Part shown: piece by piece, positions 24,736 to 42,164 of the stretch
Layout: the number at the start of each line of letters is the position of its first letter
Position numbering within the stretch: position 1 is the first letter of the stretch
Origin: Giardia intestinalis
Taxonomy: Eukaryota
Assembly: GCA_000002435.2 (NCBI GenBank)
Contig: CM018792.1
Strand: one strand, 5' to 3'
Length of the DNA stretch: 64,000 nucleotides
Notes under the pieces: generated by a model
What the model was told of the DNA's origin: nothing
The model's database searches: none
The model's input: the letters and a program-made list of their open reading frames with translations, nothing else
Position numbers and translations under genes: made by a program

Positions 24736-24740
24736 TCACT
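24734..24740 (-). promoter_or_regulatory. Giardia-type polyadenylation signal AGTGAAT (AGTRAAY) 6 nt after the unit-1 stop codon, overlapping the unit-0 ATG (AGTGAATG). The same motif recurs at every unit junction and after the last unit (22820..22826)
   Basis: + strand attcact (reverse complement AGTGAAT) at 24734-24740. The identical arrangement occurs at 26630-26636, 28551-28557, 30422-30428, 32226-32232, 34101-34107, 36015-36021, 37932-37938 and 39763-39769 (by periodicity). Consensus AGTPuAAPy is the known Giardia polyA signal. Confidence 0.55.
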
Positions 24741-24747
24741 ACCTAAG

Positions 24748-26631
24748 TCACGCCTTCCCCCTGCACAGGAACCACCAGCAGAGGAAGCCCACGAGGCCCC
24801 CCACGACAGCGACCACGGCGACGGCAATGCCCGCGATGGCCCCCGTGCTGAGGCCGCTCCTATTACTGCCAGAGGACACACAGGAGGCCCCAGCATCATC
24901 AGGGCTGTACCCATCGTTGCACACACAGACAGAGTTATCATCAGTGGAGTTGCTGGGACAGCCATCCACGCATGACTTCCTCCCAGGGCTCACCTTCCCA
25001 CTACTACATGCCTCGCACATGTCATCCCTGTTGGGCTTCTTACTACTGTCACAGGAGGTACAGACAGCGGGGGCCATACCACCATCAGACAGAGCTGCTG
25101 GGGCTGTACACTGGGAGCAGCCCTCTACCCCGACGTATGCCTTAGTATCTACTAGTGTGCCTAATGGGTTGCCACAGGCCAGGACAGACTGATCAGTGTT
25201 GGATGCACCAGGGACTACGAAGTACTTATTATTCTCATTGGCAGCTGTACACTTACCATCGGCTGCTGTCTTGCACATGAGGCTTCCTGGTTCTGTATCA
25301 TACTTATAACACCCACCCATGTACAAGAAGTAGTTGTTAGTGCATTGTGTACATACACCTTGATCACATTGATTATTTGCTTTAGCACTATTACACTTCC
25401 CATCTATAGGATACGTATTAGCTTCTCCACAGTATGAGCAATAATGATGCTCTACACCCTTATCATCAATCACTATTGCATCGCAGGCACCAGAGGTACC
25501 ACCACAAGCCGTGGGGTCTTCACATGTCTTCACACATGTATAGTCATCCCCCGCATCTCCATTGGATTGCTTCCTGTAGTTAGGCTTACATTCAGTGCAC
25601 TTGAACCCATTATTGTTAGAACATAGACTACAGCCTTCACGGCCACCATCTGTTGTACTGTCACAAGCAACGCACTCACCAGTAGAGCCGGGTTGTTTCA
25701 TGAAGAATCCAGGCTTGCATTTAGTGCACTTATCATTGCCAGCTTGAGTGCAGGTGGCACAGTTGGCACCACAGGCTTCACATGTAACCGTACCACCATT
25801 TCCACTATTGTAATATCCGTCGAGGCACTCCGAGCAGGTCGGCTTGGCTCCGTTCTTCTTACATGTTTTACACCCAGGCGTCCCTTTATTAGCTTCTAAA
25901 CTTTCACTATCATCACTACACAATATGCACTTGGTGCTACCATCATTTAGAAAGTGGGATCCGTCAACGTTACTTGTTGCGCACCCATTTGCATCGACAC
26001 AGGTTGTCGTGCCATCGATGGCCGTCTTCACCATCTTCTGACCACCGCAGTTAGTGCACTTCGGCTTCTTGGTAGTCGAATCAACCTCACACTGGGTACA
26101 TGCTTGATCTATCGTGTTGCAAGGAAGGCACTTCCCCGACTCCGGGTCAGCATAAGTGTTTCCAGTGCATCCATTATTATTCACGCATGACTTGTCAGTC
26201 TTCAGGTACTTCCCCTCTGGACACGATGTGCAATGATTCGGACCACTTCCATCGCAGGTCAGACAGGACTGATCACACTTCTCACATGCATCACCCTTCT
26301 TAATGTATCCATCTTGGCAGACAGTGCATGTGGCCGGTCCGCTAGTGCCCGTGTGGGAGCATTCTGAGCATCCAGCGACTCCCATGACCCCGTTTCTATC
26401 TATAGTATCGGAGCACAAGATGCACTCACTACCCTTCTCTGATGGTGTAACTGGGTTCTTGAACAGGCCGTTAGCTGTATTACAAGCAGTGCACAGTCCT
26501 CCCTCAGCCTTTGTGCATATCTCACTGCCAGGGTGTGCATCCTTGTTGTAGCACCCGCCCATGAAGAGGAGTCTCATACTATCACTATCACCCCCACACC
26601 ACATAGCACTATCACTATCACTGTACAGCAT
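24748..26631 (-). CDS. VSP unit 1 (N-module A, middle Y, C-terminal type 1); ATG start but no signal peptide
   Basis: 627-aa intact ORF with ATG at 26629-26631 (cat). Ends FLCWWFLCRGKA, stop at 24748-24750. Confidence 0.8.
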   Translation of the reverse strand: MLYSDSDSAMWCGGDSDSMRLLFMGGCYNKDAHPGSEICTKAEGGLCTACNTANGLFKNPVTPSEKGSECILCSDTIDRNGVMGVAGCSECSHTGTSGPATCTVCQDGYIKKGDACEKCDQSCLTCDGSGPNHCTSCPEGKYLKTDKSCVNNNGCTGNTYADPESGKCLPCNTIDQACTQCEVDSTTKKPKCTNCGGQKMVKTAIDGTTTCVDANGCATSNVDGSHFLNDGSTKCILCSDDSESLEANKGTPGCKTCKKNGAKPTCSECLDGYYNSGNGGTVTCEACGANCATCTQAGNDKCTKCKPGFFMKQPGSTGECVACDSTTDGGREGCSLCSNNNGFKCTECKPNYRKQSNGDAGDDYTCVKTCEDPTACGGTSGACDAIVIDDKGVEHHYCSYCGEANTYPIDGKCNSAKANNQCDQGVCTQCTNNYFLYMGGCYKYDTEPGSLMCKTAADGKCTAANENNKYFVVPGASNTDQSVLACGNPLGTLVDTKAYVGVEGCSQCTAPAALSDGGMAPAVCTSCDSSKKPNRDDMCEACSSGKVSPGRKSCVDGCPSNSTDDNSVCVCNDGYSPDDAGASCVSSGSNRSGLSTGAIAGIAVAVVAVVGGLVGFLCWWFLCRGKA

Positions 26632-26643
26632 TCACTACCTAAG

Positions 26644-28552
26644 TCACGCCTTCCCCCTGCACAGGAACCACCAGCAGAGGAAGCCCACGAGGCCCCCCAC
26701 GACAGCGACCACGGCGACGGCAATGCCCGCGATGGCCCCCGTGCGGAGGCCGCTCCTATTACTGCCAGAGGACACACAGGAGGCCCCAGCATCATCAGGG
26801 CTGTACCCATCGTTGCACACACAGACAGAGTTATCATCAGTGGAGTTGCTGGGACAGCCATCCACGCATGACTTCCTCCCAGGGCTCACCTTCCCACTAC
26901 TACATGCCTCGCACATGTCATCCCTGTTGCAGTGGGAGCATCCCTCAATAGCACATGCGAAGCACCCACTACCATCCCTGTTGGGCTTCTTACTACTGTC
27001 ACAGGAGGTACACACAGCAGCAGTCATGCCACCATCAGATGGAGCTGCTGGGGCTGTACATGCTGAGCAGCCATCCACCCCAACGTATGCCTTAGTATCT
27101 ACTAGTGTGCCTAATGGGTTACCACATGCCAATACAGACTGATTCTGATTGGTTGCCCCTGGGACTACGAAGTACTTATTATTGGCCGCCTCTGTGCATA
27201 TCCCATTGTTACCTGCGGTCTTGCACATGTAGTTGCCTGGTGGACTCTGAGTGCTATAACAGCCACCCATGTACAAGAAGTAGTTGTTAGTGCATTGTGT
27301 ACATACACCTTGATCACATTGATTATTTGCTTTAGCACTATTACACTTCCCATCTATAGGATACGTATTAGCTTCTCCACAGTATGAGCAATAATGATGC
27401 TCTACACCCTTATCATCAATCACTATGGCATCACAGGCACCAGAGGTACCACCACAAGCAGTGTCATCCTCACAGGTCTTCACACATGTATAGTCATCCC
27501 CCGCATCTCCATTGGATTGCTTCCTGTAGTTAGGCTTACATTCAGTGCACTTGAACCCATTATTGTTAGAACATAGACTACAGCCTTCACGGCCACCATC
27601 TGTTGTACTGTCACAAGCAACGCACTCACCAGTAGAGCCGGGTTGTTTCATGAAGAATCCAGGCTTGCATTTAGTGCACTTATCATTGCCAGCTTGAGTG
27701 CAGGTGGCACAGTTGGCACCACAGGCTTCACATGTAACCGTACCACCATTCCACTATGTAATATCCGTCGAGGCACTCCGAGCAGGTCGGCTTGGCTCCG
27801 TTCTTTACATGTTTACACCCGGCGTCCCTTTATTAGCTTCTAAACTTACTCATACAACACATGCTTGGTGCTCCATCATAGAATGGGATCCGTCACGTTA
27901 CTTGCGCAGCCTTTTGCATCGACACAGGTGTCGTGCCATCGATGGCCGTCTCACCATCTTCTGACCACCGCAGTGTGCACTTCGGCTTCTTGGTAGTCGA
28001 ATCAACCTCACACTGGGTACATGCTTGATCTATCGTGTTGCAAGGAAGGCACTTCCCCGACTCCGGGTCAGCATAAGTGTTTCCAGTGCATCCATTATTA
28101 TTCACGCATGACTTGTCAGTCTTCAGGTACTTCCCCTCTGGACACGATGTGCAATGATTCGGACCACTTCCATCGCAGGTCAGACAGGACTGATCACACT
28201 TCTCACATGCATCACCCTTCTTAATGTATCCATCTTGGCAGACAGTGCATGTGGCCGGTCCGCTAGTGCCCGTGTGGGAGCATTCTGAGCATCCAGCGAC
28301 TCCCATGACCCCGTTTCTATCTATAGTATCGGAGCACAAGATGCACTCACTACCCTTCTCTGATGGTGTAACTGGGTTCTTGAACAGGCCGTTAGCTGTA
28401 TTACAAGCAGTGCACAGTCCTCCCTCAGCCTTTGTGCATATCTCACTGCCAGGGTGTGCATCCTTGTTGTAGCACCCGCCCATGAAGAGGAGTCTCATAC
28501 TATCACTATCACCCCCACACCACATAGCACTATCACTATCACTGTACAGCAT
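26644..28552 (-). pseudogene. VSP unit 2, decayed. The N-module A piece (27893..28552) and the middle-Y/C-terminal piece (26644..27651) are separated by a ~250-bp zone with at least 6 small deletions relative to unit 1
   Basis: Alignment of 27740..27960 with 25790..26060 shows multiple 1-3 nt deletions (e.g. accaccatttccactattgtaatatcc vs accaccattccactatgtaatatcc). Also an 18-aa insertion (GSGCFACAIEGCSHCNRD) in the C-terminal module. Confidence 0.7.
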
Positions 28553-28564
28553 TCACTACCTAAG

Positions 28565-30358
28565 TCACGCCTTCCCCCTGCACAGGAACCACCAGCAGAG
28601 GAAGCCCACGAGGCCCCCCACGACAGCGACCACGGCGACGGCAATGCCCGCGATGGCCCCCGTGCGGAGGCCGCTCCTATTACTGCCAGAGGACACACAG
28701 GAGGCCCCAGCATCATCAGGGCTGTACCCATCGTTGCACACACAGACAGAGTTATCATCAGTGGAGTTGCTGGGACAGCCATCCACGCATGACTTCCTCC
28801 CAGGGCTCACCTTCCCACTACTACATGCCTCGCACATGTCATCCCTGTTGGGCTTCTTACTACTGTCACAGGAGGTACAGACAGCGGGGGCCATACCACC
28901 ATCAGACAGAGCTGCTGGGGCTGTACACTGGGAGCAGCCCTCTACCCCCACATATGCCTTAGCAGTATTACCAGTGCCTGTCAGTGTGCCTAGGGGGTTA
29001 CTACAAGCCAACACAGACTGATCAGTGTTGGATGCACCAGGCACTACGAAGTACCTATTGTTGGCTGCTTCTGTGCAGATCCCAGTATTACCTGCTGTCT
29101 TGCACATGAAGCTACCAGGAGCCTTCTGAGTGCTATAACAGCCACCCATGTATAGGAAGTAGTTGTTGGTGCACTGTGTACATACACCATTAGCACAAGT
29201 ATTCCCAGCCTTTTGAGCCTCACTAGCACAGAGACCATCTATAGGAGCTTGTGAACTATCTCCACAATAGGAACAGTAGTGCTTTGTGGTGCCCTGATCA
29301 TCTATTACGATGGCATCACAAGAGCCAGCTGTCCCCCCACAAGCCGTGGGGTCCTCGCAGGTCTTCTCTGTGCATGTATAGTTGTCTGAGGTTCCAGCGG
29401 GCTTCCTGTTAGGCTTGCACTTTGTGCACTTGAGAGGTCCTGTAGACTCCTTTGTGCACTCGGCACACCCATCGATGCCCCCCTGTGCATTATCACAAGC
29501 AACGCACTCACCAGTAGGACCATTGCCTTTCATGAAGAACCCAGGCTTGCATGTATCACACTTATCATTGCCAGTTTGAGTGCAGGTGGCACAGTTAGCA
29601 CCTGGACAAGCGGTGCATGTAACCGTACCACTACCACTACTGTAGTATCCATCGAGGCACTCCGAGCAGGTCGGCGGTGTCGCCGAGTCCTTGGTACACT
29701 TCTTACACCCGGCAATGCCCTGGTCATTTGGATCGGCTCCAGCTGAAACGGTACTGCATAAAACACATGTTTTGTCCTCCTTCATAAATAGGGCCTCGTC
29801 AGCGCCTTTACATCCAGCGTAGTCTTTTGTCACGCACGTCGAGGTCCCATCAAGGGCCGTCCTGGGGATCTTACTGTTATCACAAGCTGTGCACTTCGGC
29901 TTCTTGGTAGTCGAATCAACCTCACACTGGGTACATGCTTGATCTATCGTGTTGCAAGGAAGGCACTTCCCCGACTCCGGGTCAGCATAAGTGTTTCCAG
30001 TGCATCCATTATTATTCACGCATGCATTATCCTTCAGGAACGTATTTCCCTTACAAGAGGTACACTGGGTCGCCGACGTCTCACAGGTCAGGCAAGAGTC
30101 GTTGCACTTCTCACATGCCCCGTTACTATTTAGAAAGTATCCCTCTGTGCAGGTATCACATGTAGCTGCTCCTGCATTCTGTGGTGCCGTACATGTGGCG
30201 CAGTTCTCCACTCCCTTTGTCGCGCCATCTCCCACCGTGTCCCAGCACAGGATGCACTCCCTTCCCTTCTCTGGTGTTGCAGCCGGGTTCTGGAATATGT
30301 ACTGGTTATCTACCTTACAAGCAGTGCACACTCCACTACTGACCTTTGTGCATATCAC
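28565..30358 (-). CDS. VSP unit 3 (N-module B, middle X, C-terminal type 1). No ATG-initiated ORF: the junction ATG at 30421-30423 gives MLYNV* and an expanded TATCAC repeat
   Basis: 597-aa ORF from GTG: ICTKVSSGVCTACKVDNQ...; ends FLCRGKA. Confidence 0.75.
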   Translation of the reverse strand: MICTKVSSGVCTACKVDNQYIFQNPAATPEKGRECILCWDTVGDGATKGVENCATCTAPQNAGAATCDTCTEGYFLNSNGACEKCNDSCLTCETSATQCTSCKGNTFLKDNACVNNNGCTGNTYADPESGKCLPCNTIDQACTQCEVDSTTKKPKCTACDNSKIPRTALDGTSTCVTKDYAGCKGADEALFMKEDKTCVLCSTVSAGADPNDQGIAGCKKCTKDSATPPTCSECLDGYYSSGSGTVTCTACPGANCATCTQTGNDKCDTCKPGFFMKGNGPTGECVACDNAQGGIDGCAECTKESTGPLKCTKCKPNRKPAGTSDNYTCTEKTCEDPTACGGTAGSCDAIVIDDQGTTKHYCSYCGDSSQAPIDGLCASEAQKAGNTCANGVCTQCTNNYFLYMGGCYSTQKAPGSFMCKTAGNTGICTEAANNRYFVVPGASNTDQSVLACSNPLGTLTGTGNTAKAYVGVEGCSQCTAPAALSDGGMAPAVCTSCDSSKKPNRDDMCEACSSGKVSPGRKSCVDGCPSNSTDDNSVCVCNDGYSPDDAGASCVSSGSNRSGLRTGAIAGIAVAVVAVVGGLVGFLCWWFLCRGKA

Positions 30359-30420
30359 ACTCCACTATCACCCTATCACCCTCTATCACCCACTATCACC
30401 CATTATCACACATTGTACAG
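30352..30420. repeat. Variable-copy microrepeat (core TATCAC on the + strand, GTGATA on the coding strand) at unit junctions. About 5 copies at this junction versus 2 at 32164..32239 and 39701..39776. The same core forms the MLYSDSDSAMWCGGDSDS N-terminal codons of the A-type units
   Basis: 30356..30410: ccactatcac cctatcac cctctatcac ccactatcac ccattatcac a. The A-type junction (e.g. 24681..24732) reads catactatcactatcacccccacaccacatagcactatcactatcactgtacag. Confidence 0.7.
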
Positions 30421-30435
30421 CATTCACTACCTAAG

Positions 30436-32163
30436 TCACGCCTTCCCTCTACACACGAACCACCAGCAGAGGAACCCTATGAGACCCCCCACGACGACGA
30501 CCACAGCGACGGAGATCCCCGCGATGGCCCCCGTGGAGAGCCCGCCCCTGTTGGCGCCAGAGGACACACACTTACCACCCTCTAGACTGTATCCATCAAC
30601 ACACTCCCCACATATATTATCCATCACACAGCTCTTGCAGTTGGTGTCAGAGCATGTCACACACCCAGTGCCATCCTTGTTGGGCACCTTACTATTGTCA
30701 CAGGAGGTACACACAGCAGCAGTCATGCCAGCTGTTGTTAGAGCTGCTGGGGCTGTACACTGGGAGCAGCCCTCTACCCCCACATATGCCTTAGCAGTAT
30801 TACCAGTGCCTGTCAGTGTGCCAAGGGGGTTACTACAAGCCAACACAGACTGATCAGTGTTGGATGCACCAGGCACTACGAAGTACCTATTGTTGGCTGC
30901 TTCTGTGCAGATCCCAGTATTACCTGCTGTCTTGCACATGAAGCTACCAGGAGCCTTCTGAGTGCTATAACAGCCACCCATGTATAGGAAGTAGTTGTTG
31001 GTGCACTGTGTACATACACCATTAGCACAAGTATTCCCAGCCTTTTGAGCCTCACTAGCACAGAGACCATCTATAGGAGCTTGTGAACTATCTCCACAAT
31101 AGGAACAGTAGTGCTTTGTGGTGCCCTGATCATCTATTACGATGGCATCACAAGAGCCAGCTGTCCCCCCACAAGCCGTGGGGTCCTCGCAGGTCTTCTC
31201 TGTGCATGTATAGTTGTCTGAGGTTCCAGCGGGCTTCCTGTTAGGCTTGCACTTTGTGCACTTGAGAGGTCCTGTAGACTCCTTTGTGCACTCGGCACAC
31301 CCATCGATGCCCCCCTGTGCATTATCACAAGCAACGCACTCACCAGTAGGACCATTGCCTTTCATGAAGAACCCAGGCTTGCATGTATCACACTTATCAT
31401 TGCCAGTTTGAGTGCAGGTGGCACAGTTAGCACCTGGACAAGCGGTGCATGTAACCGTACCACTACCACTACTGTAGTATCCATCGAGGCACTCCGAGCA
31501 GGTCGGCGGTGTCGCCGAGTCCTTGGTACACTTCTTACACCCGGCAATGCCCTGGTAATTTGGATCGGCTCCAGCTGAAACGGTACTGCATAAAACACAT
31601 GTTTTGTCCTCCTTCATAAATAGGGCCTCGTCAGCGCCTTTACATCCAGCGTAGTCTTTTGTCACGCACGTCGAGGTCCCATCAAGGGCCGTCCTGGGGA
31701 TCTTACTGTTATCACAAGCTGTGCACTTCGGCTTCTTGGTAGTCGAATCAACCTCACACTGGGTACATGCTTGATCTATCGTGTTGCAAGGAAGGCACTT
31801 CCCCGACTCCGGGTCAGCATAAGTGTTTCCAGTGCATCCATTATTATTCACGCATGCATTATCCTTCAGGAACGTATTTCCCTTACAAGAGGTACACTGG
31901 GTCGCCGACGTCTCACAGGTCAGGCAAGAGTCGTTGCACTTCTCACATGCCCCGTTACTATTTAGAAAGTATCCCTCTGTGCAGGTATCACATGTAGCTG
32001 CTCCTGCATTCTGTGGTGCCGTACATGTGGCGCAGTTCTCCACTCCCTTTGTCGCGCCATCTCCCACCGTGTCCCAGCACAGGATGCACTCCCTTCCCTT
32101 CTCTGGTGTTGCAGCCGGGTTCTGGAATATGTACTGGTTATCTACCTTACAAGCAGTGCACAC
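30436..32163 (-). CDS. VSP unit 4 (N-module B, middle X, C-terminal type 2, ending FVCRGKA). No ATG-initiated ORF: the junction ATG gives MLYNV*
   Basis: ORF opens at GTG: (V)CTACKVDNQYIFQNPAATPEKGRECILCWDT... A 76-nt junction (32164..32239) separates it from unit 5. Confidence 0.75.
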   Translation of the reverse strand: MCTACKVDNQYIFQNPAATPEKGRECILCWDTVGDGATKGVENCATCTAPQNAGAATCDTCTEGYFLNSNGACEKCNDSCLTCETSATQCTSCKGNTFLKDNACVNNNGCTGNTYADPESGKCLPCNTIDQACTQCEVDSTTKKPKCTACDNSKIPRTALDGTSTCVTKDYAGCKGADEALFMKEDKTCVLCSTVSAGADPNYQGIAGCKKCTKDSATPPTCSECLDGYYSSGSGTVTCTACPGANCATCTQTGNDKCDTCKPGFFMKGNGPTGECVACDNAQGGIDGCAECTKESTGPLKCTKCKPNRKPAGTSDNYTCTEKTCEDPTACGGTAGSCDAIVIDDQGTTKHYCSYCGDSSQAPIDGLCASEAQKAGNTCANGVCTQCTNNYFLYMGGCYSTQKAPGSFMCKTAGNTGICTEAANNRYFVVPGASNTDQSVLACSNPLGTLTGTGNTAKAYVGVEGCSQCTAPAALTTAGMTAAVCTSCDNSKVPNKDGTGCVTCSDTNCKSCVMDNICGECVDGYSLEGGKCVSSGANRGGLSTGAIAGISVAVVVVVGGLIGFLCWWFVCRGKA

Positions 32164-32239
32164 TCCACTACTGGCCTGTGTGCATATCTCACTCCACTAT
32201 CACCCATTATCACACATTGTACAGCATTCACTACCTAAG

Positions 32240-34102
32240 TCACGCCTTCCCCCTGCAGATGAACCACCAGCAGAGGAACCCTATGAGACCCCCCACGACG
32301 ACGACCACAGCGACGGAGATCCCCGCGATGGCCCCCGTGGAGAGCCCGCCCCTGTTGGCGCCAGAGGACACACACTTACCACCCTCTAGACTGTATCCAT
32401 CAACACACTCCCCACATATATTATCCATCACACAGCTCTTGCAGTTGGTGTCAGAGCATGTCACACACCCAGTGCCATCCTTGTTGGGCACCTTACTATT
32501 GTCACAGGAGGTACACACAGCAGCAGTCATGCCAGCTGTTGTTAGAGCTGTTGGTGCTGTACACCGGGAGCAGCCATATACTCCTACATATGCCTTAGCG
32601 GTACTATCAGTGCCTACTAGTGTGCCTAGGGGGTTACTACAAGCCAACACAGACTGATCAGTGTTGGATGCACCAGGCACTACGAAGTACCTATTGTTGG
32701 CTGCTTCTGTGCAGATCCCAGTATTACCTGCTGTCTTGCACATGAAGCTACCAGGAGCCTTCTGAGTGCTATAACAGCCACCCATGTATAGGAAGTAGTT
32801 GTTGGTGCACTGTGTACATACACCATTAGCACAAGTATTCCCAGCCTTTTGAGCCTCACTAGCACAGAGACCATCTATAGGAGCTTGTGAACTATCTCCA
32901 CAATAGGAACAGTAGTGCTTTGTGGTGCCCTGATCATCTATTACGATGGCATCACAAGAGCCAGCTGTCCCCCCACAAGCCGTGGGGTCCTCGCAGGTCT
33001 TCTCTGTGCATGTATAGTTGTCTGAGGTTCCAGCGGGCTTCCTGTTAGGCTTGCACTTTGTGCACTTGAGAGGTCCTGTAGACTCCTTTGTGCACTCGGC
33101 ACACCCATCGATGCCCCCCTGTGCATTATCACAAGCAACGCACTCACCAGTAGGACCATTGCCTTTCATGAAGAACCCAGGCTTGCATGTATCACACTTA
33201 TCATTGCCAGTTTGAGTGCAGGTGGCACAGTTAGCACCTGGACAAGCGGTGCATGTAACCGTACCACTACCACTACTGTAGTATCCATCGAGGCACTCCG
33301 AGCAGGTCGGCGGTGTCGCCGAGTCCTTGGTACACTTCTTACACCCGGCAATGCCCTGGTAATTTGGATCGGCTCCAGCTGAAACGGTACTGCATAAAAC
33401 ACATGTTTTGTCCTCCTTCATAAATAGGGCCTCGTCAGCGCCTTTACATCCAGCGTAGTCTTTTGTCACGCACGTCGAGGTCCCATCAAGGGCCGTCCTG
33501 GGGATCTTACTGTTATCACAAGCTGTGCACTTCGGCTTCTTGGTAGTCGAATCAACCTCACACTGGGTACATGCTTGATCTATCGTGTTGCAAGGAAGGC
33601 ACTTCCCCGACTCCGGGTCAGCATAAGTGTTTCCAGTGCATCCATTATTATTCACGCATGACTTGTCAGTCTTCAGGTACTTCCCCTCTGGACACGATGT
33701 GCAATGATTCGGACCACTTCCATCGCAGGTCAGACAGGACTGATCACACTTCTCACATGCATCACCCTTCTTAATGTATCCATCTTGGCAGACAGTGCAT
33801 GTGGCCGGTCCGCTAGTGCCCGTGTGGGAGCATTCTGAGCATCCAGCGACTCCCATGACCCCGTTTCTATCTATAGTATCGGAGCACAAGATGCACTCAC
33901 TACCCTTCTCTGATGGTGTAACTGGGTTCTTGAACAGGCCGTTAGCTGTATTACAAGCAGTGCACAGTCCTCCCTCAGCCTTTGTGCATATCTCACTGCC
34001 AGGGTGTGCATCCTTGTTGTAGCACCCGCCCATGAAGAGGAGTCTCATACTATCACTATCACCCCCACACCACATAGCACTATCACTATCACTGTACAGC
34101 AT
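32240..34102 (-). CDS. VSP unit 5 (N-module A, middle X, C-terminal type 2, ending FICRGKA); no signal peptide
   Basis: 620-aa intact ORF. The C-terminal module MTAAVCTSCDNSKVPNKDGTGCVTCSDTNCKSCVMDNICGECVDGYSLEGGKCVSSGANRGG... is shared with unit 4 and resembles the head gene. Confidence 0.8.
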   Translation of the reverse strand: MLYSDSDSAMWCGGDSDSMRLLFMGGCYNKDAHPGSEICTKAEGGLCTACNTANGLFKNPVTPSEKGSECILCSDTIDRNGVMGVAGCSECSHTGTSGPATCTVCQDGYIKKGDACEKCDQSCLTCDGSGPNHCTSCPEGKYLKTDKSCVNNNGCTGNTYADPESGKCLPCNTIDQACTQCEVDSTTKKPKCTACDNSKIPRTALDGTSTCVTKDYAGCKGADEALFMKEDKTCVLCSTVSAGADPNYQGIAGCKKCTKDSATPPTCSECLDGYYSSGSGTVTCTACPGANCATCTQTGNDKCDTCKPGFFMKGNGPTGECVACDNAQGGIDGCAECTKESTGPLKCTKCKPNRKPAGTSDNYTCTEKTCEDPTACGGTAGSCDAIVIDDQGTTKHYCSYCGDSSQAPIDGLCASEAQKAGNTCANGVCTQCTNNYFLYMGGCYSTQKAPGSFMCKTAGNTGICTEAANNRYFVVPGASNTDQSVLACSNPLGTLVGTDSTAKAYVGVYGCSRCTAPTALTTAGMTAAVCTSCDNSKVPNKDGTGCVTCSDTNCKSCVMDNICGECVDGYSLEGGKCVSSGANRGGLSTGAIAGISVAVVVVVGGLIGFLCWWFICRGKA

Positions 34103-34114
34103 TCACTACCTAAG

Positions 34115-36016
34115 TCACGCCTTCCCCCTGCACAGGAACCACCAGCAGAGGAAGCCCACGAGGCCCCCCACGACAGCGACCACGGCGACGGCAATGCCCG
34201 CGATGGCCCCCGTGCGGAGGCCGCTCCTATTACTGCCAGAGGACACACAGGAGGCCCCAGCATCATCAGGGCTGTACCCATCGTTGCACACACAGACAGA
34301 GTTATCATCAGTGGAGTTGCTGGGACAGCCATCCACGCATGACTTCCTCCCAGGGCTCACCTTCCCACTACTACATGCCTCGCACATGTCATCCCTGTTG
34401 GGCTTCTTACTACTGTCACAGGAGGTACAGACAGCGGGGGCCATACCACCATCAGACAGAGCTGCTGGGGCTGTACACTGGGAGCAGCCCTCTACCCCCA
34501 CATATGCCTTAGCAGTATTACCAGTGCCTGTCAGTGTGCCAAGGGGGTTACTACAAGCCAACACAGACTGATCAGTGTTGGATGCACCAGGCACTACGAA
34601 GTACCTATTGTTGGCTGCTTCTGTGCAGATCCCAGTATTACCTGCTGTCTTGCACATGAAGCTACCAGGAGCCTTCTGAGTGCTATAACAGCCACCCATG
34701 TATAGGAAGTAGTTGTTGGTGCACTGTGTACATACACCATTAGCACAAGTATTCCCAGCCTTTTGAGCCTCACTAGCACAGAGACCATCTATAGGAGCTT
34801 GTGAACTATCTCCACAATAGGAACAGTAGTGCTTTGTGGTGCCCTGATCATCTATTACGATGGCATCACAAGAGCCAGCTGTCCCCCCACAAGCCGTGGG
34901 GTCCTCGCAGGTCTTCTCTGTGCATGTATAGTTGTCTGAGGTTCCAGCGGGCTTCCTGTTAGGCTTGCACTTTGTGCACTTGAGAGGTCCTGTAGACTCC
35001 TTTGTGCACTCGGCACACCCATCGATGCCCCCCTGTGCATTATCACAAGCAACGCACTCACCAGTAGGACCATTGCCTTTCATGAAGAACCCAGGCTTGC
35101 ATGTATCACACTTATCATTGCCAGTTTGAGTGCAGGTGGCACAGTTAGCACCTGGACAAGCGGTGCATGTAACCGTACCACTACCACTACTGTAGTATCC
35201 ATCGAGGCACTCCGAGCAGGTCGGCGGTGTCGCCGAGTCCTTGGTACACTTCTTACACCCGGCAATGCCCTGGTAATTTGGATCGGCTCCAGCTGAAACG
35301 GTACTGCATAAAACACATGTTTTGTCCTCCTTCATAAATAGGGCCTCGTCAGCGCCTTTACATCCAGCGTAGTCTTTTGTCACGCACGTCGAGGTCCCAT
35401 CAAGGGCCGTCCTGGGGATCTTACTGTTATCACAAGCTGTGCACTTCGGCTTCTTGGTAGTCGAATCAACCTCACACTGGGTACATGCTTGATCTATCGT
35501 GTTGCAAGGAAGGCACTTCCCCGACTCCGGGTCAGCATAAGTGTTTCCAGTGCATCCATTATTATTCACGCATGACTTGTCAGTCTTCAGGTACTTCCCC
35601 TCTGGACACGATGTGCAATGATTCGGACCACTTCCATCGCAGGTCAGACAGGACTGATCACACTTCTCACATGCATCACCCTTCTTAATGTATCCATCTT
35701 GGCAGACAGTGCATGTGGCCGGTCCGCTAGTGCCCGTGTGGGAGCATTCTGAGCATCCAGCGACTCCCATGACCCCGTTTCTATCTATAGTATCGGAGCA
35801 CAAGATGCACTCACTACCCTTCTCTGATGGTGTAACTGGGTTCTTGAACAGGCCGTTAGCTGTATTACAAGCAGTGCACAGTCCTCCCTCAGCCTTTGTG
35901 CATATCTCACTGCCAGGGTGTGCATCCTTGTTGTAGCACCCGCCCATGAAGAGGAGTCTCATACTATCACTATCACCCCCACACCACATAGCACTATCAC
36001 TATCACTGTACAGCAT
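34115..36016 (-). CDS. VSP unit 6 (N-module A, middle X, C-terminal type 1); ATG start but no signal peptide
   Basis: 633-aa intact ORF. N-terminal 190 aa identical to units 1, 2 and 5; middle identical to units 0, 3, 4, 5 and 7. Confidence 0.8.
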   Translation of the reverse strand: MLYSDSDSAMWCGGDSDSMRLLFMGGCYNKDAHPGSEICTKAEGGLCTACNTANGLFKNPVTPSEKGSECILCSDTIDRNGVMGVAGCSECSHTGTSGPATCTVCQDGYIKKGDACEKCDQSCLTCDGSGPNHCTSCPEGKYLKTDKSCVNNNGCTGNTYADPESGKCLPCNTIDQACTQCEVDSTTKKPKCTACDNSKIPRTALDGTSTCVTKDYAGCKGADEALFMKEDKTCVLCSTVSAGADPNYQGIAGCKKCTKDSATPPTCSECLDGYYSSGSGTVTCTACPGANCATCTQTGNDKCDTCKPGFFMKGNGPTGECVACDNAQGGIDGCAECTKESTGPLKCTKCKPNRKPAGTSDNYTCTEKTCEDPTACGGTAGSCDAIVIDDQGTTKHYCSYCGDSSQAPIDGLCASEAQKAGNTCANGVCTQCTNNYFLYMGGCYSTQKAPGSFMCKTAGNTGICTEAANNRYFVVPGASNTDQSVLACSNPLGTLTGTGNTAKAYVGVEGCSQCTAPAALSDGGMAPAVCTSCDSSKKPNRDDMCEACSSGKVSPGRKSCVDGCPSNSTDDNSVCVCNDGYSPDDAGASCVSSGSNRSGLRTGAIAGIAVAVVAVVGGLVGFLCWWFLCRGKA

Positions 36017-36028
36017 TCACTACCTAAG

Positions 36029-37933
36029 TCACGCCTTCCCCCTGCACAGGAACCACCAGCAGAGGAAGCCCACGAGGCCCCCCACGACAGCGACCACGGC
36101 GACGGCAATGCCCGCGATGGCCCCCGTGCTGAGGCCGCTCCTATTACTGCCAGAGGACACACAGGAGGCCCCAGCATCATCAGGGCTGTACCCATCGTTG
36201 CACACACAGACAGAGTTATCATCAGTGGAGTTGCTGGGACAGCCATCCACGCATGACTTCCTCCCAGGGCTCACCTTCCCACTACTACATGCCTCGCACA
36301 TGTCATCCCTGTTGGGCTTCTTACTACTGTCACAGGAGGTACAGACAGCGGGGGCCATACCACCATCAGACAGAGCTGCTGGGGCTGTACACTGGGAGCA
36401 GCCCTCTACCCCCACATATGCCTTAGCAGTATTACCAGTGCCTGTCAGTGTGCCAAGGGGGTTACTACAAGCCAACACAGACTGATCAGTGTTGGATGCA
36501 CCAGGCACTACGAAGTACCTATTGTTGGCTGCTTCTGTGCAGATCCCAGTATTACCTGCTGTCTTGCACATGAAGCTACCAGGAGCCTTCTGAGTGCTAT
36601 AACAGCCACCCATGTATAGGAAGTAGTTGTTGGTGCACTGTGTACATACACCATTAGCACAAGTATTCCCAGCCTTTTGAGCCTCACTAGCACAGAGACC
36701 ATCTATAGGAGCTTGTGAACTATCTCCACAATAGGAACAGTAGTGCTTTGTGGTGCCCTGATCATCTATTACGATGGCATCACAAGAGCCAGCTGTCCCC
36801 CCACAAGCCGTGGGGTCCTCGCAGGTCTTCTCTGTGCATGTATAGTTGTCTGAGGTTCCAGCGGGCTTCCTGTTAGGCTTGCACTTTGTGCACTTGAGAG
36901 GTCCTGTAGACTCCTTTGTGCACTCGGCACACCCATCGATGCCCCCCTGTGCATTATCACAAGCAACGCACTCACCAGTAGGACCATTGCCTTTCATGAA
37001 GAACCCAGGCTTGCATGTATCACACTTATCATTGCCAGTTTGAGTGCAGGTGGCACAGTTAGCACCTGGACAAGCGGTGCATGTAACCGTACCACTACCA
37101 CTACTGTAGTATCCATCGAGGCACTCCGAGCAGGTCGGCGGTGTCGCCGAGTCCTTGGTACACTTCTTACACCCGGCAATGCCCTGGTCATTTGGATCGG
37201 CTCCAGCTGAAACGGTACTGCATAAAACACATGTTTTGTCCTCCTTCATAAATAGGGCCTCGTCAGCGCCTTTACATCCAGCGTAGTCTTTTGTCACGCA
37301 CGTCGAGGTCCCATCAAGGGCCGTCCTGGGGATCTTACTGTTATCACAAGCTGTGCACTTCGGCTTCTTGGTAGTCGAATCAACCTCACACTGGGTACAT
37401 GCTTGATCTATCGTGTTGCAAGGAAGGCACTTCCCCGACTCCGGGTCAGCATAAGTGTTTCCAGTGCATCCATTATTATTCACGCATGACTTGTCAGTCT
37501 TCAGGTACTTCCCCTCTGGGCACGATGTACAATGATTCTGACCACTTCCATCGCAGGTCAGACAGGACGGATCACACTGCTTGCATTCGTTATTCTCTTT
37601 ATAGTACCCTGCTTGGCACTCAGTGCACGTGGCAGGTCCTGGACTATTAGTTGGTTCCGTGCACTTGAGGCAGTTAGCCACCCCCGTATATCCATCTGCT
37701 CCCTTGGTATCCCAGCAGAGGATGCACTCCCTTCCCTTCTCTGATGGTGTAGCAGGGTTCTTGAACAGGCCGTTAGCTGTATTACACTCAGTGCACACTC
37801 CATTACTGGCTGCTGTGCATATCTCACTGCCAGGGTGTGCATCCTTGTTGTAGCACCCGCCCATGAAGAGGAGTCTCATACTATCACTATCACCCCCACA
37901 CCACATAGCACTATCACTATCACTGTACAGCAT
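36029..37933 (-). CDS. VSP unit 7 (N-module A', middle X, C-terminal type 1); ATG start but no signal peptide
   Basis: MLYSDSDSAMWCGGDSDSMRLLFMGGCYNKDAHPGSEICTAASNGVCTEC... ; ends FLCRGKA; intact 634-aa ORF. Confidence 0.8.
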   Translation of the reverse strand: MLYSDSDSAMWCGGDSDSMRLLFMGGCYNKDAHPGSEICTAASNGVCTECNTANGLFKNPATPSEKGRECILCWDTKGADGYTGVANCLKCTEPTNSPGPATCTECQAGYYKENNECKQCDPSCLTCDGSGQNHCTSCPEGKYLKTDKSCVNNNGCTGNTYADPESGKCLPCNTIDQACTQCEVDSTTKKPKCTACDNSKIPRTALDGTSTCVTKDYAGCKGADEALFMKEDKTCVLCSTVSAGADPNDQGIAGCKKCTKDSATPPTCSECLDGYYSSGSGTVTCTACPGANCATCTQTGNDKCDTCKPGFFMKGNGPTGECVACDNAQGGIDGCAECTKESTGPLKCTKCKPNRKPAGTSDNYTCTEKTCEDPTACGGTAGSCDAIVIDDQGTTKHYCSYCGDSSQAPIDGLCASEAQKAGNTCANGVCTQCTNNYFLYMGGCYSTQKAPGSFMCKTAGNTGICTEAANNRYFVVPGASNTDQSVLACSNPLGTLTGTGNTAKAYVGVEGCSQCTAPAALSDGGMAPAVCTSCDSSKKPNRDDMCEACSSGKVSPGRKSCVDGCPSNSTDDNSVCVCNDGYSPDDAGASCVSSGSNRSGLSTGAIAGIAVAVVAVVGGLVGFLCWWFLCRGKA

Positions 37934-37945
37934 TCACTACCTAAG

Positions 37946-39700
37946 TCACGCCTTCCCCCTGCACAGGAACCACCAGCAGAGGAAGCCCACGAGGCCCCCC
38001 ACGACAGCGACCACGGCGACGGCAATGCCCGCGATGGCCCCCGTGCGGAGGCCGCTCCTATTACTGCCAGAGGACACACAGGAGGCCCCAGCATCATCAG
38101 GGCTGTACCCATCGTTGCACACACAGACAGAGTTATCATCAGTGGAGTTGCTGGGACAGCCATCCACGCATGACTTCCTCCCAGGGCTCACCTTCCCACT
38201 ACTACATGCCTCGCACATGTCATCCCTGTTGGGCTTCTTACTACTGTCACAGGAGGTACAGACAGCGGGGGCCATACCACCATCAGACAGAGCTGCTGGG
38301 GCTGTACACTGGGAGCAGCCCTCTACCCCGACGTATGCCTTAGTATCTACTAGTGTGCCTAATGGGTTGCCACAGGCCAGGACAGACTGATCAGTGTTGG
38401 ATGCACCAGGGACTACGAAGTACTTATTATTCTCATTGGCAGCTGTACACTTACCATCGGCTGCTGTCTTGCACATGAGGCTTCCTGGTTCTGTATCATA
38501 CTTATAACACCCACCCATGTACAAGAAGTAGTTGTTAGTGCATTGTGTACATACACCTTGATCACATTGATTATTTGCTTTAGCACTATTACACTTCCCA
38601 TCTATAGGATACGTATTAGCTTCTCCACAGTATGAGCAATAATGATGCTCTACACCCTTATCATCAATCACTATTGCATCGCAGGCACCAGAGGTACCAC
38701 CACAAGCAGTGTCATCCTCACAGGTCTTCACACATGTATAGTCATCCCCCGCATCTCCATTGGATTGCTTCCTGTAGTTAGGCTTACATTCAGTGCATTT
38801 GAATCCACCAGTGTTAGAGCATGCACTGCACCCTTCGCGGCCCTTATTGTCCACACTGTCGCATGAGACACACTCACCAGGGGCGCCACTCTTCAGGAAG
38901 AACCCGGGCTTGCAGGTTTGGCACTGGTTAGCATTAGCGCTGTTGCAGGTGGCACAGTTGGTCCCACAGGGCTTGCAGGTGGTATCAAAGTAGAATCCAG
39001 GGAGGCATTCTGAGCAGATTGGAGGCTGTGCCAGGTCGGTTTTCTTACACCCACTGCACTCAGCAATTCCCTTGTTGGGGGCGGTTCCTCCGGTAGCGCT
39101 GCATAGTATGCAACTGTTCTCATCCTGGCTTAGGAAGTGTGTTCCCACTGTGTTTAGCGCTGCACATCCCGCCTTATCCACGCACTCTGTTGATCCATCG
39201 ACATACCCTTTAAGGAGAGGCTTGGCTCCCCCACAGGCGGTGCACTTCGGCTTCTGTAGCTTTGCATCGTACGTGCAAGCAGTGCACTCTGGTATGCCCC
39301 CCTGATCTGCTCCAGCGTTACAAGCTATGCACTTGCCGGTGCTTGGGTCGGGGTACTTATCTCCATTACAACTGCTAGCATCTACACAATTATTCCCATC
39401 GAGATACTTCTCGCCCGCACAGAGGGTGCACTTAGTTGCGCCCTCACCGCTGCAAGTCAGACAAGCTTCATTACATTTGACACATGCACCGTTACCATCT
39501 TTATAGTACCCTGCTTGACACTCTGTACACGTGGCAGGTCCTGCATTCCCCGGTGCTGTACACTTGAGGCAGTTGGCCACTCCTTTGTTCTCATTCGCTC
39601 CCGTGGCATCATGACAGAGGATGCACTCCCCACCAGGGGTCACCTTCTCTGCCTTGTTCTGGAATATGTACTGACTATCTGTATTACACTCAGTGCACAC
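37946..39700 (-). CDS. VSP unit 8 (N-module type C, middle Y, C-terminal type 1). 5'-truncated: no signal peptide; the ORF opens with GTG, and the unit's junction ATG is closed after 5 codons (MLYNV*)
   Basis: Begins (V)CTECNTDSQYIFQNKAEK... immediately after the junction repeat. Ends FLCWWFLCRGKA. Confidence 0.75.
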   Translation of the reverse strand: MCTECNTDSQYIFQNKAEKVTPGGECILCHDATGANENKGVANCLKCTAPGNAGPATCTECQAGYYKDGNGACVKCNEACLTCSGEGATKCTLCAGEKYLDGNNCVDASSCNGDKYPDPSTGKCIACNAGADQGGIPECTACTYDAKLQKPKCTACGGAKPLLKGYVDGSTECVDKAGCAALNTVGTHFLSQDENSCILCSATGGTAPNKGIAECSGCKKTDLAQPPICSECLPGFYFDTTCKPCGTNCATCNSANANQCQTCKPGFFLKSGAPGECVSCDSVDNKGREGCSACSNTGGFKCTECKPNYRKQSNGDAGDDYTCVKTCEDDTACGGTSGACDAIVIDDKGVEHHYCSYCGEANTYPIDGKCNSAKANNQCDQGVCTQCTNNYFLYMGGCYKYDTEPGSLMCKTAADGKCTAANENNKYFVVPGASNTDQSVLACGNPLGTLVDTKAYVGVEGCSQCTAPAALSDGGMAPAVCTSCDSSKKPNRDDMCEACSSGKVSPGRKSCVDGCPSNSTDDNSVCVCNDGYSPDDAGASCVSSGSNRSGLRTGAIAGIAVAVVAVVGGLVGFLCWWFLCRGKA

Positions 39701-39776
39701 TCCACTACTGGCCTGTGTGCATATCTCACTCCACTATCACCCATTATCACACATTGTACAGCATTCACTACCTAAG

Positions 39777-42074
39777 TCACGCCTTCCCCCTGCAGATGAA
39801 CCACCAGCAGAGGAACCCTATGAGACCCCCCACGACGACGACCACAGCGACGGAGATCCCCGCGATGGCCCCCGTGGAGAGCCCGCCCCTGTTGGCGCCA
39901 GAGGACACACACATGCCATCCCTCGGGACATAGCCCTCCTCGCACTCCCCGCAGACGCCCTCTGCGCTGCACCGCATGCACCTCTCTATGTCACAGACAA
40001 TGCACTGGGTGCCGTCCAGGCTGGGTCTCTGGTCTTTATTGGTACATGCCTCACACTTGTTGTCTGCGCTGCAGTGAGAGCAGCCCTGGGCCGGACACAC
40101 ATAGCAGGTGCTTCCAGCCATGTTGGGCTTCTTATTGTCCTCAGCACACACCTCGCACATCCCGTCGATGGCGCAGCTCTTGCACCCGCCGACCGCACAC
40201 AGGGTGCACCCGCTGCCATCCTTGTTGGGCTTCTTCGTCTTGTCGCACGCACTACAGACCGCCGCGGCCATCGCATTGGCGGCTGGCGCCTGCGGGGCCG
40301 CGCACGCCGTGCAGTCTAGCACGCCGACGTACGCCTTGTCGCCCGCGGTCGCTCCCACAGGGTTGCCACAGGCAAGCACGGACTGCTGAGCAGCAGAGTC
40401 CCCGGGAATCTTGAAGTAGCGCCCGACCGGTGTGGTGCAGAACCCACTTGGAGCCGCAGAGCACATGAGGTTGCCAGGAGCCTTCGACACATCATAGCAA
40501 CCACCCATATAGAGGAAGTAGTTGTTGGTGCACCGCGTACATACGCCATCGGCGCAGGTATTACCTGCAAGTGCATTGGTGCACTTCCCATTAATAGGGC
40601 CATAGCCGGCGCCAACACACTTTGAACAGTAAGAGAGCATGCTGCCGTCGTTGCCGACCACGATGGCGTCGCAGGCCCCTGCTGTCCCTCCACATGCAGT
40701 CTCATCTTCACAGGTCTTTGTACATGTGAGGTCGCTAGGTTCTCCGCTGGGTCTGTAGTTGGGCTTACATTCAGTGCATTTGAGGGACCCCACGCCGCCT
40801 GTGCACTCGACACAGCCTGGAATCCCACTTGTCTCGTCATCACAGAGAACGCATGTCTTAGGCGGGCCATCCTTAAGGAAGTACCCCGGCATGCATCTTG
40901 TACATGTGTTGATTTGACCCGCTGTTCCGCACTCTGCGCAGTTTCCTGTGCAGGCCTCGCAGGCGTTTCCGTTGACTTTATACCCGTCGACACAAGCCTC
41001 GCAGGTGCCTTTTGCGGTGCACAGCTTGCAGTTCTGGACTCCGCCCTTACCATTGTCGCCGCACTGCACGCACTTCGAGGCGTCGTAGAAGTGCGTCTTG
41101 CCCACTTTGCACTCGGCCTCATCAACACAGGTCGTTGTCCCATCCAGCTCGTCTCTGACCGTCTTACTACCGCAGTCGGTGCACTTCGGCTTTCCCGTGG
41201 CGTCGTCGTATGCACACGCGGTGCATCCTTGTATCTCACTGCAGGCCTTACAGGTCCAGGTCTTCTTGTCCGCATAGTTACCATTGTCACATCCACCAGC
41301 ATCTACACAAGTGTTACCACCCTTCAAGTACTTCCCCTCAACGCAGGCGGTACACTGAGTCGGAGTATCAGCTGAGCAAGCAGAGCAGCCGTCTCCGCAC
41401 TTCACACATGCACTGCCCTTCGTAACGAACCCTGCTTGACACTCTGTACACGTGGCCGGTCCGCTAGTGCCCGTGTGGGAGCATTCTGAGCATCCAGCGA
41501 CTCCCATGACCCCGTTTCTATCTATAGTATCGGAGCACAAGATGCACTCGCTACCCTTCTCTGATGGTGTAACTGGGTTCTTGAACAGGCCGTTAGCTGT
41601 CTTACACTCAGTGCACAGTCCTCCCTCAGCCTTTGTGCATATCTCGCTGCCGGGCCCGTCGGTTGTCTTGTAGCACCCGCCCATGAAGAGGAAGTACCCG
41701 TCGCCGCACTTTCCGCAGGTGGTTGCCGTCTTGTCGAGGGCAGTCCCGTCTGCTTGGGTGCACCCGGCTGCCGCGGCCTGGGGGGAGCCGGGGGGCCAGC
41801 AGAAGCCGTCGACTGGGACGCCCCCGGTCTTGCACTCGGTGCAGATCTCTGTGCTACCGACCGTCTCGCACTTATCGGTCTGGCAGGTCGCTGTATGGTT
41901 CCCGTCTTGCTGGCAGGTCACTGCAAGCGCGCTCACCACGAACAGGGGTATCAGTAGAAAGGCTGTGGTGTGGACCGGATTGCGTGCAGCGGGTGGGGGT
42001 GCCCCGGCGGCCTCCTCTCTGAGACTCCCACTCCGAGGGTTGCCCCAGGGGGGAGCCCGCTGGCCTGGTCGCAC
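39777..42074 (-). CDS. VSP (variant-specific surface protein), head gene of the array: signal peptide, about 700-aa CXXC-rich ectodomain, TM and CRGKA. No in-frame ATG was found upstream of the signal peptide, and the ORF-track start is GTG
   Basis: TAFLLIPLFVVSALAVTC signal-like segment; GGCY motifs (FLFMGGCYKTTDGPG, FLYMGGCYDVSKAPG); about 35 CXXC motifs; C-terminus GAIAGISVAVVVVVGGLIGFLCWWFICRGKA. The unique N-terminal ~130 aa and the long C-terminal CXXC module are not shared with the downstream units. Confidence 0.8.
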   Translation of the reverse strand: MRPGQRAPPWGNPRSGSLREEAAGAPPPAARNPVHTTAFLLIPLFVVSALAVTCQQDGNHTATCQTDKCETVGSTEICTECKTGGVPVDGFCWPPGSPQAAAAGCTQADGTALDKTATTCGKCGDGYFLFMGGCYKTTDGPGSEICTKAEGGLCTECKTANGLFKNPVTPSEKGSECILCSDTIDRNGVMGVAGCSECSHTGTSGPATCTECQAGFVTKGSACVKCGDGCSACSADTPTQCTACVEGKYLKGGNTCVDAGGCDNGNYADKKTWTCKACSEIQGCTACAYDDATGKPKCTDCGSKTVRDELDGTTTCVDEAECKVGKTHFYDASKCVQCGDNGKGGVQNCKLCTAKGTCEACVDGYKVNGNACEACTGNCAECGTAGQINTCTRCMPGYFLKDGPPKTCVLCDDETSGIPGCVECTGGVGSLKCTECKPNYRPSGEPSDLTCTKTCEDETACGGTAGACDAIVVGNDGSMLSYCSKCVGAGYGPINGKCTNALAGNTCADGVCTRCTNNYFLYMGGCYDVSKAPGNLMCSAAPSGFCTTPVGRYFKIPGDSAAQQSVLACGNPVGATAGDKAYVGVLDCTACAAPQAPAANAMAAAVCSACDKTKKPNKDGSGCTLCAVGGCKSCAIDGMCEVCAEDNKKPNMAGSTCYVCPAQGCSHCSADNKCEACTNKDQRPSLDGTQCIVCDIERCMRCSAEGVCGECEEGYVPRDGMCVSSGANRGGLSTGAIAGISVAVVVVVGGLIGFLCWWFICRGKA

Positions 42075-42164
42075 ACGAGGCGCCCTGTCGTGTGCCCGGA
42101 GGGACGGCGCTGCACGGGCGACGGGTGAGAGGTGGGATCGGCTCGTCGAGACAGAGTAATGGCT

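Follow-up and report, generated by a model that had tools for sequence, protein, structure and literature searches.

A Giardia intestinalis variant-specific surface protein gene without its initiator, very likely a 5′-truncated pseudogene, heads a ten-unit array

The window analysed here is a stretch of 64,000 nucleotides (nt) from contig CM018792.1 of the Giardia intestinalis assembly GCA_000002435.2. On its minus strand, at 22832-42164, it contains ten head-to-tail copies of genes for variant-specific surface proteins (VSPs). The first copy, which we call the head, retains a segment resembling a signal peptide and an open frame up to its stop codon. At the position where related VSP genes have their start codon, it has none. 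We conclude that the head is very likely a VSP pseudogene (pVSP) which has lost its 5′ end and stands at the head of a silent array in this assemblage-A genome. The PyAatgTT initiator (Py, pyrimidine), the start codon within it and all upstream sequence have been lost, either by rearrangement or by a very local replacement. What is left of the gene, signal-peptide codon 2 to the CRGKA stop, now lies downstream of an unrelated conserved gene for a protein of 442 amino acids (aa), about 210 nt beyond its stop codon. Without the initiator the head would have neither a promoter nor a start codon, and from what is known of Giardia biology no VSP protein would be expected from it. The array of ten units is probably coding-silent as a whole, because the head has no promoter or start codon and the units 2-10 are devoid of the signal-peptide region. 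It might persist as a sequence reservoir, trading segments with other VSP copies through gene conversion, or perhaps as discarded material.

The head gene and its missing start codon

On the minus strand the head has an open VSP frame of 795 codons that begins at 42164 and reaches the CRGKA stop at 39777. It is bounded upstream by the TAG at 42167-42165, which is the stop codon of the 442-aa open reading frame (ORF), and the two ORFs are in the same frame. The ectodomain matches the Pfam family PF03302, "Giardia variant-specific surface protein" (E = 9.7e-44, 150 bits, cut-off 31.4). The translation ends in a transmembrane domain and the CRGKA cytoplasmic tail (...GGLIGFLCWWFICRGKA and the stop), and an extended poly(A) signal of the VSP type, a motif described in bioRxiv 10.1101/2022.03.07.483299, lies directly 3′ of the stop codon. 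The closest database proteins are all VSPs of Giardia duodenalis/lamblia. The head is 97% identical to the WB RefSeq model XP_037902139.1, and the array units are near-identical to the WB protein XP_001705183.1. The window therefore belongs to assemblage A and represents WB or a very close strain.

The initial annotation of the region, which was made from the DNA letters, stated that the head ORF opens at a GTG and that the approximately 130 nt checked upstream of its signal-like segment contain no in-frame ATG. Both statements are borne out. ORF-listing tools place the start at this GTG (Table 1), no in-frame ATG exists back to the TAG that bounds the frame, and ATG is absent from all three frames between 42205 and 41685 on the minus strand. 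The signal-like segment TAFLLIPLFVVSALAVTC pointed out at the same time is present, and its AFLLIPLF... portion aligns with the signal peptide MFQLIPLFVASTIAVTC of the relatives. The first in-frame ATG of the head, at 41684, is located 93 codons downstream of the start position of the relatives, and a start at this codon would cost the signal peptide and about 90 N-terminal residues. The head is therefore without two features that are criteria of functional VSPs, the initiator methionine before the signal peptide and the PyAatgTT motif spanning the start codon. With no internal stops and no in-frame methionine followed by a signal peptide, it falls into the pseudo-VSP class "no internal stops, no proper start codon".

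The region upstream of the signal-like segment had been described as GC-rich, and this is also correct. The leader between the 442-aa ORF and the signal-like segment has the composition given in Table 1, and the 30 nt 5′ of the expected start contain 33% A+T, compared with 43-70% for the ATG-initiated ORFs of the same window. An open leader free of ATG is in itself unremarkable for this composition: after shuffling of the leader, 25% of the sequences have no ATG at all and 32% keep frame 0 open. The real leader is open in all three forward frames. What counts is the homologous position of the initiator.

The initiator position in related VSP genes

In Giardia, transcription starts at an A/T-rich initiator located at the ATG or within a few nucleotides of it, and leaders are very short (in part after PMC2996952). 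The VSP initiator is present in 135 of the 136 complete VSPs of WB (bioRxiv 10.1101/2022.03.07.483299). According to unpublished data of the authors of PMC2996952, PyAatgTT is needed for efficient reporter expression.

Relatives of the head were found by a search with its N-terminal 255 residues. Four of them bear an ATG: P0001 (AHGT01000050.1 of GCA_000498715.1), P0002 (ENA metagenome contig ERZ27317378 k141_24661) and the P15 proteins EFO60854.1 and EFO63733.1. The methionine of these four relatives stands immediately 5′ of the hydrophobic segment (...PLMFQLIPLFVASTIAVTC and ...APMLFAVLYLALGTLAAAC). The corresponding column of the multiple alignment reads TAATGTT or CAATGTT in 4/4 of them (loci L002 and L003 and the P15 loci L010 and L011). 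In the head it reads CAGCCTT, and the GCC at 41963-41961, which occupies the place of the ATG, differs from the start codon of the relatives at 3/3 bases.

The homology of the head to the assemblage-A relatives detected by BLAST (85-90% nucleotide identity) sets in roughly 6 nt 3′ of their ATG, at 41955. Upstream of 41955 no BLAST match between the head and the relatives was obtained, and the Smith-Waterman scores of the leader against the upstream regions of the four relatives lie inside the shuffle null. MAFFT seemed to align the leader with sequence upstream of the P15 genes, but this result failed the shuffle test and was discarded. The ATG is absent at all three bases and upstream homology is missing. 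Therefore the initiator and everything 5′ of it have been lost, and not by a single-base change. None of the PyAATGTT motifs in the window opens a VSP ORF.

One further relative of the N-terminal domain, P0009 (an ENA contig of 648 nt), has the hydrophobic segment RRHPLLCVGTTLAVALVAPC without a methionine immediately before it, and may represent another start-less copy, located elsewhere; adapter-like sequence is present at the end of its contig.

The same junction in a second assembly

A syntenic orthologue of the head is found in the assembly GCA_000498715.1. Its contig AHGT01000095.1 carries the 442-aa ORF followed by a VSP gene (P0013, ESU35173.1), as in the window. In the junction alignment the TAG and the signal-like segment are the same, the leaders differ by 15 substitutions without any indel, and GCC stands at the position of the ATG. 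The frame relation between the TAG and the VSP is shared as well. The NCBI record of ESU35173.1 is marked partial, and its first residue is the valine of the conserved GTG 42074. Since the ATG-less junction is common to two independent assemblies, it is real and older than their divergence. An orthologue with an ATG one base away had been named in the initial annotation as evidence that would refute it. Such a case is not found here: the orthologue has GCC too, and the ATG of the relatives differs at all three bases. In public metagenome contigs neither the exact junction nor relatives of the N-terminal domain were found.

The leader is 92.8% identical to that of the orthologue, and its divergence of 7.2% is threefold that of the 442-aa ORF (2.3%). 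Read in the VSP frame, the leader shows 2 synonymous against 12 non-synonymous differences, corresponding to a pN/pS (ratio of the proportions of non-synonymous and synonymous differences) of about 2.4. The leader is without coding constraint. For the VSP N-terminal domain the pN/pS between the two assemblies is about 0.96, which fits neutrality, although VSP ectodomains may also undergo diversifying selection. From about 41660 onward the body of the orthologue carries a different sequence, 30% divergent from the window over 41660-41511, with the junction retained. Decay of the orthologous copy was considered and dropped: its sole frameshift is a C6-to-C5 homopolymer difference, possibly a sequencing error.

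The WB annotations of what seems to be the same gene (P0023 and P0028) begin at an internal methionine (MGVAGCSE...) and bear the name "High cysteine protein". As these models start at an internal methionine, the annotators had evidently found no upstream start. Most of the "High cysteine protein" models are pseudogenes (bioRxiv 10.1101/2022.03.07.483299). The WB RefSeq model of the present gene is probably a pseudogene fragment as well, and it should not enter a count of the expressible VSP repertoire.

Among the explanations considered in the initial annotation, a start-defective head, and hence a silent array, appears best supported at the sequence level: the ATG is replaced, homology to the relatives starts just after it, the leader is unconstrained, and the downstream units have no signal peptides. 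Two observations weigh against the loss of the 5′ end as we propose it. The head is open over its 795 codons and 8/10 units are at least 96% open, which is somewhat too intact for old neutral pseudogenes. Recent duplication, homogenising gene conversion or a degree of selection could account for the intact frames. In addition, the GCC still has the "CA" of the initiator before it and the "TT" after it, and this allows a very local replacement instead of a breakpoint.

Alternative explanations

The alternative that survives best is compatible with a pseudogene at the head of the array. It assumes that the array, including the head, is a silent donor archive from which segments are gene-converted into initiator-bearing VSP genes and give rise to new antigen variants. 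We regard this role as possible but tentative. Long open frames persist in 8/10 units even though start codons and signal peptides are missing; however, recent tandem duplication explains these frames equally, as the units are near-identical over long stretches. The head forms a mosaic with units 4 and 5, and the body of the orthologue is a different mosaic. Because the homology begins just past the ATG of the relatives, a crossover in the N-terminal region could move array sequence into an expressible gene. A donor function in gene conversion has been proposed as a hypothesis for the G. lamblia arrays (PMC2996952) and is reported for G. muris arrays (2022 preprint, bioRxiv 10.1101/2022.03.07.483299). 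On the other hand, no donor-to-recipient event was traced in the present analysis, and the pN/pS of the head N-terminal domain, about 1, indicates no constraint at the protein level.

It is improbable that the head represents a poised, switched-off expression slot. In such a slot a short gene-conversion tract from a relative, containing the initiator and the first codons, could re-arm the gene, or a crossover could export mosaics of the array to an expressible locus. If this were true, it would provide a recombinational route to new antigens beside switching of the epigenetic or RNA interference (RNAi) type. Low-level expression of the slot by readthrough of the TAG of the in-frame 442-aa gene is a still less likely variant. 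More generally, should start-less heads with intact frames prove to be re-armed or to act as donors, this would bear on the question whether recombination contributes to antigen diversification in Giardia.

Non-canonical initiation at a near-cognate codon was the second explanation raised in the initial annotation. The codon could be the GTG at 42074, or a CTG, ATA or GTG in the signal-like segment at 41954-41930. The frame is open, the signal-like segment is intact, and the GTG 42074 is conserved in the orthologue. Nevertheless, we found nothing in support of such a start and consider it very unlikely. With 33% A+T there is no A/T-rich initiator which could set a transcription start nearby, and the leader 3′ of GTG 42074 shows no coding constraint. 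If translation began at this GTG, the signal peptide would be buried behind a charged, proline-rich extension of 37 residues. No relevant report of non-AUG initiation or of readthrough in Giardia was found in the literature searched, and to our knowledge non-AUG initiation has not been reported in this organism.

The common frame of the two ORFs raises the question of readthrough of the TAG of the 442-aa gene, which would give an in-frame fusion with the VSP. No other stop codon lies between the ORFs, and the frame relation is kept in the orthologue. A frame match has, however, a prior of one in three, and all three frames of the leader are open. The position of the 442-aa stop is conserved in five lineages, in one of which (L012) a different gene follows, and the frame past the stop is not preserved in the lineage L017, which has a 1-nt indel. 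The 2 synonymous and 12 non-synonymous changes of the leader likewise speak against translation of this region, and a signal peptide about 520 residues into a protein would not function as one. The stop-codon context of the 442-aa gene is GAG-TAG-AGC-CAT; we know of no readthrough rules specific to Giardia. Because the stop position is conserved in five lineages, the shared frame is a coincidence, and we hold such a fusion to be highly improbable.

A sequence error had also been brought up; in sequencing or assembly the ATG could have been deleted, or the VSP wrongly connected to the 442-aa gene. VSP arrays are notorious for breaking or collapsing assemblies (PMC2996952), and the WB models of what is seemingly the same gene have other end points and a few residues that deviate from the window. 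The syntenic locus of GCA_000498715.1 refutes this explanation: its junction is identical except for substitutions, contains no leader indel and has GCC at the ATG position. Moreover, all three bases of the ATG would need to be changed. An error is accordingly most unlikely.

Giardia introns have the consensus GTATGT at the donor site and CT[AG]AC[AC]CACAG at the branch and acceptor site. The cis- or trans-splicing of a short ATG-bearing exon to a CACAG acceptor (41967-41963), the last five bases of this consensus, is hardly credible even though this CACAG ends right where the homology to the relatives is about to begin, since no CTRAC branch motif precedes it, the minus strand of 41800-44000 contains neither a full acceptor motif nor the GTATGT donor, CACAG is present three times by chance in these 2.2 kb, the relatives encode their ATG contiguously, and no spliced VSP is known to us.

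Organization of the array

The downstream units of the array also match PF03302. The units 2-10 are devoid of about 130 N-terminal residues, including the signal peptide, and have no initiator. The distance from each CRGKA stop to the next open frame is 12-76 nt. A linear array has been defined as at least two adjacent head-to-tail VSP genes that overlap or are separated by at most 241 bp (Adam et al. 2010, PMC2996952), and the ten units form a linear array in this sense. The open frame covers at least 96% in 8/10 units and 100% in the head. The two frameshifted units are unit 8 (26644-28564), with a CRGKA-anchored frame that is 58% open, and unit 10 (22832-24747), in which it is 22% open.

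The conserved VSP 3′ block is unchanged after units 1-9 (Table 1), and unit 10 has a diverged version of it, CTCGGGTAGTGAATGTATCA... The ATG assigned by the ORF finder to units 3-5 and 8-10 (MLYSDSDS...) is the ATG within AGTGAATG of the poly(A) signal of the preceding unit. It is followed by GTGATA-rich filler of variable length. Two junction types are present, in which the next ORF follows after 12 nt and 76 nt, respectively; examples of unit junctions are 37934-37945, 36017-36028 and 39701-39776 on the minus strand. The part of the head at 41398-41692 is 89% identical to units 4 and 5 (33747-34041 and 35661-35955), the orthologue (L001 8352-8547) has a different sequence there from about 41660 onward, and the central part of the head has no close copy in the array. 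These blocks of mosaic identity suggest segmental exchange among VSP copies.

A further VSP-like ORF is located near the left edge of the window at 187-1731, on the plus strand and thus opposite to the array (PF03302, E = 3.7e-51). It opens at a TTG in the ORF list, and no PyAATGTT opens it.

The 442-aa gene and the origin of the junction

The 442-aa ORF upstream of the head is a genuine, fast-evolving conserved gene. A Pfam search of its product returned no domain match. Orthologues of the protein were found at 96, 68, 59, 54 and 50% identity, those at 68-50% being 446-451 aa long. The stop position of the gene is conserved within 2 residues in five lineages, and its pN/pS against the GCA_000498715.1 orthologue is about 0.5.

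In its first approximately 24 nt the leader is homologous to the sequence 3′ of the 68% orthologue on contig L017, which ends 39 nt past the stop codon. For the remaining approximately 185 nt no match was found in the rest of the window or in the fetched loci beyond the orthologue. The leader is most likely the 3′ flank or untranslated region of the 442-aa gene followed by sequence of untraced origin, and not VSP upstream sequence. In the 59% lineage (L012-L016) a gene for a family-B DNA polymerase is located 57 nt after the 442-aa orthologue, with no VSP at this place; the polymerase gene was not found in the window. The most diverged orthologue, L018, has 120 A/T-rich nt available downstream, which gave no information on the ancestral neighbour. 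Since a different gene follows the 442-aa orthologue in L012-L016, the adjacency of the gene to the VSP array is a lineage-specific rearrangement.

A second end of homology lies on the other side of the 442-aa gene. The kinase-like gene at this side is represented by its first 314 residues only (Table 1), and L001, L012 and L017 cease to be homologous to the window at about 44960-45039. The ORF of 1722 aa that comes after the kinase fragment (45436-50604) is unrelated. As homology ends on both sides, the 442-aa gene is located on a conserved island of about 3.5 kb between two rearrangement breakpoints.

Upstream of the shared island the two assemblage-A genomes differ in gene content. Against the window beyond 44960, the GCA_000498715.1 contig (L001 1-5113) has instead genes for an LRR protein, an AhpC-type peroxiredoxin and a TLD protein, which is either a synteny difference between the two genomes or a mis-join in one assembly. 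Short-read contigs with the 442-aa gene (L017 and the P0030 cluster of up to 1409 nt) tend to end within tens of nucleotides of its stop codon, although the leader is a unique sequence of the window; possible reasons for these contig ends are the 70% G+C or allelic or structural heterogeneity at the junction.

Table 1. Positions of the head VSP gene, the array units and the neighbouring genes in the window
Feature	Position	Strand	Remarks
Position of the missing initiator	41959-41965	minus	CAGCCTT in the window, TAATGTT or CAATGTT in the relatives (multiple alignment)
Head VSP ORF	39777-42074	minus	GTG-opened, 765 aa, ends in ...CWWFICRGKA and the stop
GTG start according to ORF-listing tools	42072-42074	minus	37 codons 5′ of the signal-like segment
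Leader without ATG	41956-42164	minus	209 nt, 70% G+C
Signal-peptide-like segment AFLLIPLFVVSALAVTC	41913-41963	minus	homologous to the signal peptide MFQLIPLFVASTIAVTC of the relatives
First in-frame ATG (FLF-M-GGCY)	41682-41684	minus	codon 161 of the open frame; no initiator context
Body of the head (unit 1)	39777-41912	minus	CXXC-rich ectodomain, transmembrane segment, CRGKA tail; no internal stop
Conserved VSP 3′ block CTTAGGTAGTGAATGCTGTACA	39755-39776	minus	contains the AGTGAA poly(A) signal; unchanged after units 1-9
Units 2-10	22832-39776	minus	each starts at the FLFMGGCY equivalent (41692 in the head), after short GTGATA-rich filler
CRGKA stop ends of units 1-10	39777, 37946, 36029, 34115, 32240, 30436, 28565, 26644, 24748, 22832	minus	
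442-aa conserved hypothetical protein gene	42165-43493	minus	ORF; stop TAG 42167-42165
PI3/PI4-kinase-like gene, first 314 residues only	44098-45039	plus	full gene of 2630 aa in L012

Comparison with known VSP genes and arrays

The suggestion of novelty that was implicit in the initial annotation is not supported. VSP copies without a start codon and without an initiator, array heads among them, are already documented (PMC2996952; bioRxiv 10.1101/2022.03.07.483299). More than half of the vsp genes of WB are organized in linear arrays with a mean spacer of 60 bp, and the initiator is present in 12/25 array heads and in no downstream member (PMC2996952). In the same study vsp genes without an in-frame ATG were considered to "may represent pseudogenes". 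The head described here thus adds one more start-less copy to a group that outnumbers the functional VSP genes, at a position where half of the known array heads have no initiator. The sole slightly unusual detail is that the signal-peptide segment is kept from codon 2, the break being no more than about 10 nt away from the ATG. The locus can serve as a cleanly defined case of the probable loss of a VSP 5′ end, with the breakpoint within this distance and common to two assemblage-A assemblies.

The intact relatives of the subfamily have the same cysteine pattern as the head, and from signal-peptide codon 3-4 to the end of the N-terminal domain their nucleotide identity with it is 85-90%. They differ from it in carrying the TAATGTT or CAATGTT start and in occupying other genomic neighbourhoods.

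The array shares with the linear arrays of G. lamblia WB (PMC2996952) the short spacers, the downstream members without initiator and 5′ region, and the position next to unrelated genes. The head of a typical WB array is potentially expressible and has a long non-coding upstream region and an initiator, whereas the present head has kept the signal-peptide segment, has lost the ATG and lies about 210 nt from the stop codon of another gene.

A category of pVSPs without internal stops and with no proper start codon, such as GL50803_0050404, has been described by Rodriguez-Walker et al. 2022 (bioRxiv 10.1101/2022.03.07.483299). The head is similar to these pVSPs in its open frame up to the transmembrane domain and CRGKA, in the extended poly(A) signal, in the lack of a usable start and in its location in a pVSP array. 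Most start-less pVSPs, however, are without the whole 5′ portion, while the present copy retains the signal-peptide-like segment from codon 2.

Telomeric pVSP arrays of G. muris, as related in the 2022 preprint, have been regarded as reservoirs for gene conversion (Xu et al. 2020, PMC7641422). From this account, they and the present array are alike as long arrays of VSPs without signal peptides for which a role as gene-conversion reservoir has been proposed. The G. muris arrays belong to another species and are subtelomeric, whereas the present array is flanked by ordinary genes within the window.

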